The notes under the pieces were generated by a model. The model searched no databases, was not told the DNA's origin, and saw only the letters and a list, made by a program, of their open reading frames with translations. The position numbers and the translations under genes were made by a program. A stretch of 61,502 nucleotides of DNA, counting the filler, from Bdellovibrionota bacterium (GTDB taxonomy: Bacteria; Bdellovibrionota; Bdellovibrionia; Bdellovibrionales; JAEYZS01): NCBI GenBank assembly GCA_963169515.1. It is 7 parts of 7 records of this genome, joined end to end, with 100 filler letters (N's around TTAATTAATTAA, not from the genome) between each part and the next. Parts side by side here need not be neighbours in the genome. Positions count along the whole stretch, not along the records: positions 25,700 to 29,160 come from CAUJEF010000157.1; 6 more parts are not named here. One strand, written 5' to 3'. Positions 13,197 through 29,160 of the stretch are shown piece by piece. Numbering within the stretch: position 1 is the stretch's first letter; each line of letters opens with the position of its first letter.

Positions 13197-13296
13197 NNNN
13201 NNNNNNNNNNNNNNNNNNNNNNNNNNNNNNNNNNNNNNNNTTAATTAATTAANNNNNNNNNNNNNNNNNNNNNNNNNNNNNNNNNNNNNNNNNNNN
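13197..13296. other. Artificial contig linker
   Basis: N44-TTAATTAATTAA-N44 (stops in all six frames). Confidence 0.99.
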
Positions 13297-27390: not shown

Positions 27391-27522
27391 ATGAAAACCA
27401 TTCTGATGTTAACGATTTTGCTGCTGGGTGTTCAGGGCCAGGCTCGTGTTCCGGTGGATGCAGCCACACAGCAAAGGGGAAAGAGGCTTCCCGAGGGACT
27501 CGAGGTCATAGAGACAATGTAA
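27391..27522 (+). pseudogene. Secreted-protein gene truncated by IS insertion
   Basis: GGAGG RBS, MKTILMLTILLLGVQGQA signal peptide; stop codon lies inside the IS left inverted repeat. Confidence 0.7.
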
Positions 27523-27669
27523 GAAAGCGAGCATCCCCTAAGGAGTTCATCCACAAATGGACCTCTGGCTGAAGTAAATTTGTACTTAAGCCGTGTCAGA
27601 CCCTTTCGGGAGTGGATGTAAACTGAAATGTTCACCAACATTTCAAATCCCCAAAGGAGGATGCTGCTT

Positions 27670-28716
27670 ATGAAATATTATATTGGTCTTGATGCTCACA
27701 GTACAACATCAACATTTGCCGTGGTCGATGAAAATGGACAGTGCGTACTTCGCCAGACCGTTAAGACCTCAGAACAAAGTCTAGTTCACGTGATTAACCA
27801 AATTCATGGTGAACGTCATATGACATTTGAAGAGTCCACGATTTCTCAGTGGCTGTATTTGCAACTCAAAGACAAGGTGGACAATTTATTAATTTGTAAC
27901 CCTACGTATGTGGCAAAAAAACAGGGAGCTAAAACTGACTTCAGAGACGCACTCCATTTAGCACAAGAGCTTCGAACAAATCACTTACAGCCGGTTTTTC
28001 ATGATACGAGCCATTGGATGGAGATCCGCACGACCGTGAGTGGATACTTGGATATTGTTGAGGAAATTATTCGCTTTAAAAATCGGCTCAAGGCCGTTTT
28101 TCGAGCCGAAGCCATTCAAACAGATGAGAACAGTTTTTATAAAAATCAGTCTCGAGTGAAGGAGTTAAAAAACCAATCAGCTCGATTTGTTGCGGACAAA
28201 TTATTTAATCAAATTGAATTTCTTGAAAACGAAAAGGAAAAATATAAAGAGGTTTTCGAGAGGAATCGAAAGAAGTATCGTCCGATTCGCAATCTGATGA
28301 CGATCCCAGGAATCAGTATTATCAGGGCCAACATTATTGCTGCGATTGTTTGCCAGCCAGCAAGGTTTGAAAATAAACACAAATTTTGGGGTTACTGCAT
28401 GTTGGTTCGTCATATTCAGGTATCCGGTGGAAAGATCTATGGGAATAAGCGGTTTTTTGGCAGACGAGAGCTTCGTAATGTGTTCATCGGAGCGGCGGAG
28501 AATGTGATGCGGCTGGGTGGTGAGTTAAGGGACAGGTACGACGCCCTTAGGGCCAAGGGTGTTGATCACAAGGACGCAAAACTGAATTTAGCCAGGCAGA
28601 TTGCTTCAATCTCACTCTGCCTTTTAAAAAATAACGATAAGTACAATGAGAATTATGGTGAATATTTAAAGGAGCGAAAGAAGTTACAAAAAGAATTTTA
28701 TGAACCAAGTTTATAG
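27670..28716 (+). CDS. IS110-family DEDD recombinase/transposase
   Basis: YIGLDAH, FEES, KTDFRDA (RuvC-like DEDD); TIPGIS and VSGG in the C-terminal domain; AGGAGG RBS. Confidence 0.93.
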   Translation: MKYYIGLDAHSTTSTFAVVDENGQCVLRQTVKTSEQSLVHVINQIHGERHMTFEESTISQWLYLQLKDKVDNLLICNPTYVAKKQGAKTDFRDALHLAQELRTNHLQPVFHDTSHWMEIRTTVSGYLDIVEEIIRFKNRLKAVFRAEAIQTDENSFYKNQSRVKELKNQSARFVADKLFNQIEFLENEKEKYKEVFERNRKKYRPIRNLMTIPGISIIRANIIAAIVCQPARFENKHKFWGYCMLVRHIQVSGGKIYGNKRFFGRRELRNVFIGAAENVMRLGGELRDRYDALRAKGVDHKDAKLNLARQIASISLCLLKNNDKYNENYGEYLKERKKLQKEFYEPSL

Positions 28717-29141
28717 CTAATAGCCCTTGGACGTTCGAATACCACATGGAAGTGATGCAGAAGTTGATTCCTTTTTCATGCTGACCTAAAGCCGAAAAAG
28801 TAAATTGATTTTTGATTGGAAAGGACGACTTCGGATGGACTTCAAGGTGCGGGATGAGGCCCAATGTCTGCTTGACGGTTTAACGATAAAACACGTCCAT
28901 TTAGAGACTGGCACGCTCGCGTTTTTAATCCAACATTGTTATGGCCGCTAGAGAGGCCCAAACAGAAGAATGAATGCGCTATTTGCATAAATCCGGTTTA
29001 AACAATGGAAGGGTTCATTAAGAAAATTTCCATGCAGTATTCCAAACGACGAGAACTACCTAGATACGACGACCGGGGAGCAAGCCTCAGGCGTCGATTT
29101 AGACCGAGAAATCGGTCAAAGGAAATTTATTACCTTGAGGG
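28717..29141 (+). ncRNA. Candidate bridge RNA / seekRNA region
   Basis: About 425-nt structured non-coding region downstream of the transposase; internal loop carrying matches to both element ends. Confidence 0.6.
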
Positions 29142-29160
29142 GCTTGCTTTCTTACAGAAG

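Follow-up and report, generated by a model that had tools for sequence, protein, structure and literature searches.

A probable two-loop bridge RNA at the right end of a Bdellovibrionota IS110-family element with IS1111-like anatomy

In IS621 and IS622 (ISCro4), as described in PMC11208160, PMC11208158 and 10.1101/2025.05.14.653916, a bridge RNA carries a target-binding loop followed by a donor-binding loop, and a recombinase with a DEDD domain and a catalytic serine acts at a 2-nt core. The 5' strand of each loop reads CC, guide, core and UG, and the 3' strand CC, guide, AG and two handshake bases after the core, with a mismatched A at the donor core and a 7-nt donor arm (ACAGTAT in IS621). 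The IS1111-family seekRNA elements described in PMC11187229 (ISEc11, ISKpn4, ISPa11) have a non-coding region downstream of the gene, sub-terminal inverted repeats and terminal extensions of 7 and 3 bp, one core copy being counted to the left end, and in their RNAs a top-strand complement precedes a bottom-strand match. According to Siddiquee et al., the IS1111 type has its guides in the reverse of the IS110 order, and they suggest that the mechanics differ. Between them, the bridge-RNA and seekRNA papers left it open whether a right-end (IS1111-like) guide RNA reads its own element's ends.

The locus analyzed here is an IS110-family element with a predicted bridge RNA and IS1111-like anatomy. 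It shares with IS621 the sequence features listed above, its core being CT when read on the other strand and its own donor arm ACATTGT, although the proteins are weakly alike (E 0.00086 against IS621 chain 8WT6). Unlike IS621 as published, its RNA is downstream of the gene, with respect to which its DNA sites are inverted, and it has long inverted repeats; its variable core base is the near-invariant one of IS621, its donor handshake pairs with its own donor and its long target arm is hardly obeyed. It also displays the strict IS1111 anatomy given by Siddiquee et al., namely sub-terminal repeats, 7- and 3-bp extensions, a downstream non-coding region and reversed guides. Unlike the IS1111-family elements of PMC11187229, it has a clear donor loop, its targets are short and varied rather than specific, and its protein motifs are GLD and KTD, with no named core IS1111 element among the 100 plasmid matches listed.

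Setting, recombinase and ends of the element

The window, which is the whole 61,502-nt stretch analyzed, consists of seven contigs joined with N runs (at 13197, 25600, 29161, 32494, 46394 and 58180) and a short spacer; the order is artificial, and neighbors across a gap are not genomic neighbors. Because contig C157 stops at 29160, right at the end of the element, in a window of N-joined contigs, the right flank of this copy is truly absent, and the artificial order rules out C158 as that flank. The assembly holds a single copy, with no second copy or further end, and nothing recognizable as an empty site was found in the neighborhood of a relative (G001). The element comprises the following features:

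27509..27511, plus strand: left target flank TAG, equal to 28902-28904 of the target loop 3' strand
27512..27513, plus strand: left copy of the core dinucleotide AG (CT on the other strand), set by homologue left cores
27514..27520, plus strand: left-end donor arm, predicted to be read by the donor loop 5' strand
27518..27532, plus strand: left sub-terminal inverted repeat, 15-nt arm with family-conserved part 27520-27528
27670..28716, plus strand: IS110-family recombinase, 348 aa (PF01548, E 2.7e-18; PF02371, E 4.9e-11)
28717..29158, plus strand: long right non-coding end with the predicted bridge RNA, conserved blocks in 57 homologues
29142..29156, plus strand: right sub-terminal inverted repeat, 15-nt arm with family-conserved part 29146-29154
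29155..29160, plus strand: right-end donor arm CAGA and right core copy AG, where the contig ends

The recombinase shows the IS110-family hallmark, a RuvC-like DEDD domain (PF01548) together with a Tnp domain (PF02371) bearing the catalytic serine, and D8, E55, D90, D93 and S252 are invariant across 35 aligned relatives. A reading made earlier from the sequence alone had placed the element in a divergent clade, which is borne out by NCBIfam NF033542 (E 1.3e-36, 126.4 bits, below the cut-off of 140) and by plasmid relatives that are at best ~27% identical among the matches listed. The family is large, with 483 proteins at E<=1e-30; 14 of the 16 genome loci with close relatives carry Bdellovibrionota names, so that the host probably belongs there, and viral contigs yielded no relative.

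The comparison drew on these 16 genome loci, on the locus in the window itself and on metagenome loci, of which the best 80 of 83 were taken; dropping loci below 50% identity and fragments without the loop or end concerned left 55, 50, 48 and 52 elements in four comparisons; changes were counted on a protein tree of 66 rows. Thirteen left ends were parsed with a second pattern and two guide strands were placed by hand. The left-end parser demanded G-AC, so these letters are no test of the ends, and anchoring on the repeat alone gave the same letters.

Across 71 left ends the core was AG in 58, TG in 12 and CG in 1, its G being the parsing anchor with which repeat-only anchoring agrees, while right-end types include CAGA-AG, AAGA-TG, TAGG-AG and CAGA-CG. 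An AG, TG or CG core thus stands at both junctions in homologues, with no longer target duplication, and the two inverted-repeat arms are 93% complementary and conserved. In runs X1-X3 of one study, one contig begins at 27511 and two, in X1 and X3, stop at 29160. The frames of recognizable interrupted genes fit one core copy at L017, L022, L039, L048 and L050, with Pfam matches on both sides for L039 only, whereas the frame at L072 misfits, ~50 codons being absent between its flanks. A blind frame test of 25 loci was mixed: one core copy fitted best in 7, other spacings in 8 and none in 10. No joined-end junction was found in 132 loci or in the contigs of four runs, contigs being prone to drop rare forms, and 14 viral pattern matches to joined ends were palindromes without a transposase.

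Several minor observations concern the junctions. At L018, L037, L075 and L121 the second core base departs from G (AA, AT), and does so at the right junction alone, a hint to the way in which core mismatches are resolved. The flank past the right end of L089 opens like the start of a second non-coding-end copy, a possible nested or tandem insertion. Many insertions lie within or next to other mobile-element genes, as Pfam shows for the flanks of L017, L022, L033, L039, L048, L050 and L075 (Y2, ISL3 and DDE transposases, a serine recombinase and an integrase core). In the window itself, a short frame with a signal-peptide-like start (27391-27513) enters the left junction and stops inside the element; it is probably an interrupted gene, and its other half was not found. 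A promoter scan of the element ends called no site, and we do not claim a weak by-eye match to a junction promoter (TTGCTT in the right repeat and TAAGAA in the left, 17 nt apart on the circle).

The donor-binding loop and its covariation with the element ends

The sequence-only reading had singled out two 7-mers within one loop of the right non-coding end, and both agree letter by letter with the element ends: ACATTGT (28933-28939) is the reverse complement of 27514-27520, and ACAGAAG (28962-28968) is identical to 29154-29160, each occurring once within 28717-29141. The A that follows had been said to fit the predicted junction as well; it does match (A28969 = A27514), as a handshake position rather than an ordinary guide base. 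The loop is made up as follows:

28932..28941, plus strand: 5' strand of the donor loop, complementary to left end and core, the last base usually mismatched, as in IS621
28943..28958, plus strand: donor loop inner hairpin, closing pairs near-invariant, length varying widely through insertion
28960..28970, plus strand: 3' strand of the donor loop, with right end and core followed by handshake AA at 28969-28970

Among 20,000 dinucleotide shuffles, 435 contained the first 7-mer and 840 the second; 19 contained the two together, and in 3 of them they stood in order and no more than 60 nt apart. The co-occurrence is rare, as had been argued, but these figures overstate the rarity since the words were picked after the fact. 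The proposed inner stem stands, three of its pairs holding in 30, 30 and 29 of 30 aligned homologues and the fourth in 18, whereas the outer stem as drawn is weak: 84.9% of its cells are paired with two-sided changes at 3/6 pairs, the RNAalifold consensus does not list it among predicted helices, and G28919 pairs with C28850 of the target-loop stem in 29/30, at least as well as in the donor stem. Its register is therefore not fixed. Alternatively, the loop may be closed through 28929-28973 and 28930-28972, two pairs that are invariant, invariance alone being no proof. Folding likewise gave a divided answer, with the whole right end more stable than shuffles (z -2.45) but the flagged loop closed on itself, its two strands pairing with each other in the single-sequence fold (local z -0.79), so that folding alone does not show an open loop.

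Across homologues, the donor 3' strand equals the right end and first core base at five positions in 55/55 elements and matches the second core base in 52, with two wobbles and one failure. Over 11 distinct pairs, 63 of 66 cells matched against 47.5 after shuffling (p 5e-5), and on the tree right-end position -4 changed at least 7 times in the DNA and 7 times in the guide, position -1 at least 4 times and the first core base at least 3 times. For the donor 5' strand, 18 distinct pairs gave 129 matching cells out of 162, compared with 120.9 after shuffling (p 0.0006); left-end base 4, which matches in 50/50 through two tree changes, is the sole covarying position there, and mismatches occur at left-end base 2 (9/50), base 6 (8/50) and the first core base (31/50). 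When every RNA column was scanned against each DNA position (~770 tests per position), columns 28963, 28966, 28967 and 28936 ranked first with kappa 1.0. Loop columns came first for right-end -4 and -1, the core, left-end base 4, left-flank -1 and -2 and right-flank +1, the first core base covarying with both loops; left-end bases 3, 5 and 6, by contrast, each had their top-ranked column somewhere other than in the guide. Kinship raises some of these scores, an unrelated column having reached kappa 0.85.

Two strands of one loop covary with two element ends, as in the donor loop of a bridge RNA, strongly on the 3' strand and at one position on the 5' strand. From this pattern we consider it highly probable that the right end specifies a two-loop bridge RNA and that the flagged loop is real and donor-binding, as in other IS110-family guide RNAs and as first proposed. 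The long guide region that had been proposed alongside it did not survive, as the donor guides measure 7+2 and 4+2 nt, like those of IS621, and just the non-coding end is long (419-651 nt in 58 elements). An Rfam search of that end returned nothing at E<=1.

Three other explanations of the donor loop were weighed against these data. Chance or shared ancestry, with no RNA-DNA pairing, draws on the shortness of the words, on a local fold no better than shuffles and on kin that are not independent. It is effectively refuted by covariation. Against it stand the 3/20,000 shuffles, the repeated changes on separate branches and the balanced left-flank and guide changes described below, and the same pattern is visible by eye in relatives at 24-27% identity. 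Pairing of the loop with RNA for regulation, through a read-through or junction transcript of the ends, would suit a 5' strand complementary to the left end of a same-sense transcript, in a family where RNA-level control is described (ISPpu9, PMC12288879); however, the strand that covaries best has the very sequence of the same-sense right end and not its complement, as expected for pairing with the opposite DNA strand in the manner of IS621, and we regard RNA pairing as very improbable. Somewhat less remote, yet still improbable, is a seekRNA model in which the ends are read via sub-terminal repeats and a target loop suffices, leaving the donor loop optional or for excision only. An 82-nt target-only RNA supported movement of ISEc11 (PMC11187229), excision with the donor loop alone is reported for IS621, and the present element has 15-nt inverted repeats and a donor 5' strand that tolerates mismatches. 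Against that model, CazIS110-1 is reported to require the full RNA for circles and integration, and the co-change of donor 3' strand and right end is perfect and repeated, which calls for ongoing selection on their pairing.

Natural covariation answers yes to self-end reading for one long-inverted-repeat clade and names the bases to mutate; it also suggests that the element would be programmable.

Target-binding loop and its match to insertion sites

The target loop had been held to be unassignable with the right flank missing. The left flank and the homologues nevertheless allow it to be placed, upstream of the donor loop:

28849..28920, plus strand: target-binding loop, outer stem 28849-28861/28910-28920 and inner hairpin 28874-28897 (RNAalifold)
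28863..28872, plus strand: target loop 5' strand, complement of core and right flank, predicting C first in the missing flank
28899..28908, plus strand: 3' strand of the target loop, with left flank and core followed by handshake AC at 28907-28908, equal to the first two donor bases

Two-sided changes occur in 13 of the 18 stem pairs. The handshake AC was also a parsing anchor, and an independent alignment nevertheless shows it to be invariant. Each flank was compared with the guide separately. Over 47 distinct pairs, the 3' strand matched left-flank position -1 in 47, -2 in 44 and -3 in 30, with chance levels beyond, and at the two best positions 29 tree changes in the guide stand beside 29 in the DNA. 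The 5' strand predicted the first right-flank base in 31/52 elements (shuffled 17.6). Position 3 of that flank reached p 0.023 uncorrected and the others stayed at chance levels, even when wobble was permitted; a scan of the RNA columns in all registers found none that predicted positions 2-8 (best kappa 0.26). Both flanks are thus matched by the loop, as in a bridge RNA, over three bases on the left and one on the right, much shorter than in IS621. The left flanks come in 47 different sequences and the right flanks in 51, agreement is limited to ~5-6 bp, and elements or close groups showed no longer insertion site of their own of the kind known for IS110 and IS1111 elements. On these sequence comparisons the effective target seems to be ~5-6 bp and one-sided, the lineage seemingly picking its landing sites by an unusually short match. 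Since insertions obey just the core, two to three left bases and loosely one right base, the element lands at many sites. In runs X1-X3 it occurs with other left flanks, and several insertion sites per population share G-AG alone on the left. The left flank found next to a sister element that has T at 28904 ends in TTAT, a link that we infer across unbridged contigs.

At the first right-flank base, the guide-predicted C was missed in favor of A in 8 cases, G in 5 and T in 4, and in 24/52 elements this base equals that of the donor beside the core. An excess of A there as a handshake effect was considered and is not clearly above background.

The short match could be an artefact of other copies, trans-acting relatives or guide drift, with true targeting longer and two-sided, a doubt that touches the target claim only. 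Assemblies can mis-pair flanks, as L072 and L073 share a left flank and differ on the right; related elements with different guides co-occur, and 3/55 right junctions have an altered core. Mis-pairing between identical copies is immaterial, however, because the guide was set against one flank at a time, and drift or trans action should have blurred the left match also, where position -1 still holds in 47/47. One genome (G062) has right flanks beginning AGC, ACT, GTT and TGA behind near-identical ends, and the failure of any RNA column in any register to predict right-flank positions 2-8 again speaks for a short target. We therefore judge an artefact unlikely and retain the one-sided reading.

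Half-match reactions of IS621 are reported chiefly on the donor side; in this clade it looks as though the target side is half-matched in nature. The clade offers a natural series for bridge editing, bearing on the minimal target match and on the true handshake-base requirements, and its loose targeting would be a drawback for an editing tool unless a fully matched guide tightens specificity.

Proposed mechanism, handshake and left end

The matches, covariation, boundaries and target-loop structure described above are combined here with features carried over from IS621 by analogy, namely RNA expression, protein binding, circle formation, chemistry and handshake function. In the proposed scheme, a right-end bridge RNA would present the target loop and then the donor loop. 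On either side of the core, the left-end arm would pair with the donor 5' strand, and the right-end arm, through its opposite DNA strand, with the donor 3' strand; the donor loop would thereby read the joined ends of the excised element, and the upstream target loop the insertion site. Both sites would be held by a recombinase tetramer (RuvC-type DEDD plus serine), which would exchange strands at the core and leave one core copy at each junction. The core AG corresponds to the CT of IS621 because the DNA sites are upside-down relative to the gene, and we infer the same chemistry with inverted sites. The guide order is that of IS1111 and matches the IS621 pattern when the DNA is read on the other strand; if this mirror-image reading is true, the 'reversed guide order' of right-end RNAs would be a matter of strand naming rather than mechanism.

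The handshake departs from this likeness. The target-loop handshake AC fits the donor, whereas the donor-loop handshake AA pairs with its own donor at the first base, because that base is A (62/62 elements). Such pairing cut IS621 recombination in E. coli, and IS622 designs avoid an equal donor and target base beside the core; in the present element the pairing of the handshake with its own donor may favor excision.

The left end carries four further features:

27525..27669, plus strand: left-end fold whose outer helix would bury the ribosome-binding site, in 13/13 folded left ends of differing sequence
27559..27598, minus strand: copy of the scaffold half-motif that frames the guide loops, in 64/71 left ends
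27619..27624, plus strand: -10-like hexamer TAAACT before the gene, with conservation of at least 90% at four of its six positions across 51 left ends
27677..27682, minus strand: candidate outward-facing -10 box TATAAT; of 55 distinct gene starts, 27 have TATAAT and 16 have TAAAAT

The half-motif shows paired changes on the minus strand, compared with 4 plus-strand occurrences and a shuffled average of 7.2, and no guide strand accompanies it; it was not found upstream of six distant relatives. We propose it as a candidate recombinase-binding site on an antisense RNA or single-stranded DNA, and our two guesses at its role are that it belongs to an antisense RNA comparable to Asr9, or that it serves as a signal carried by the single strand that is excised. 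The minus-strand -10 box is weakly suggestive, as it falls in codons 3-5 and is partly forced by the protein sequence, and the plus-strand hexamer was not called by the promoter scan. Sigma-70 consensus and the GNRA and UNCG tetraloop classes were applied by eye. Folding energy chose no strand (minus better in 28 and plus in 35 of 63 ends), while stable tetraloops lean minus (27/81 versus 7/82 plus), mostly in one subclade.

ISPpu9 and ISPpu10 with their RNAs Asr9 and Asr10 (PMC12288879, PMC8450116) are alike in having a structured, translation-blocking 5' region crossed by an antisense RNA, the blocking and the antisense RNA both being putative here, and ISPpu9 also in its AG core (PMC12288879); unlike the present element, Asr9 and Asr10 come with no mention of a recombinase-binding motif in the available text of PMC12288879. 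A donor loop in an IS110-family RNA is already known, and the short one-sided targeting, odd handshake and antisense motif are variant features. Taken jointly, as a bridge lineage that targets with half of its target loop, namely the short arm of ~5-6 bp adjoining the handshake, has a donor handshake that in IS621 terms hinders insertion and bears at its left end, on the minus strand, a third recombinase-binding motif that lacks guides, they make up a reading that we offer tentatively and ourselves hold doubtful. If it is true, the motif, on an antisense RNA over the ribosome site or on a strand released by excision, would couple protein level to translation or circle handling.

The nearest named proteins are ISSso6, ISEc45 and ISMno22, at 23-24% identity among the matches listed. 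One listed protein is labelled IS1328, and its motifs (GLDVH, KTD) are not those of IS1328 as given in the supplement. Judged by the names among the listed matches, the protein points away from the core IS1111 family. The ISSso6/ISEc45/ISMno22 branch is alike in a right-end RNA with inverted repeats and far diverged; its members stand beside ISCARN28 and ISAzs32 in the source-data sheet of PMC11187229, whose column order would appear to follow tree order, and for those two Durrant et al. give predictions, and only predictions, of bridge RNAs including donor pairing. No targeting test of this branch was found in the literature searched. This clade may be among the 32,190 bridge RNAs, with 12-40 paired bases, that were modelled in a preprint of 2026. 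Our literature search, which covered few subscription papers, figures and supplements, returned nothing on the clade, the mirror-image reading or the antisense motif, and such work may exist there. By eye, the donor strands of a Rhizobium element (L149) and of ISMno22 (L150), at 24-27% identity, are laid out in the same way, the core being followed by AA.

The two loops also vary in size. The donor strands are spaced by 15-147 nt in 62 elements, with the maximum in L071, and a sister element in runs X1-X3 has 72 letters in place of 8; the target-loop hairpin lengthens from 26 to ~50 nt in a distant subclade. From the sequences compared, both hairpins are natural sites that tolerate additions. 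An 18-nt inverted repeat (28734-28751 / 29028-29045) could wrap both loops into one long RNA domain, and consensus folding did not keep its full pairing. Lastly, in the sisters L023 (867-1012) and L035 (1525-1670) the A after CC is replaced by U at the start of all four guide strands, and the same two proteins, which form one lineage, have K for R at residue 309, where 60/60 others have R; this joint change may mark a base read by the protein.
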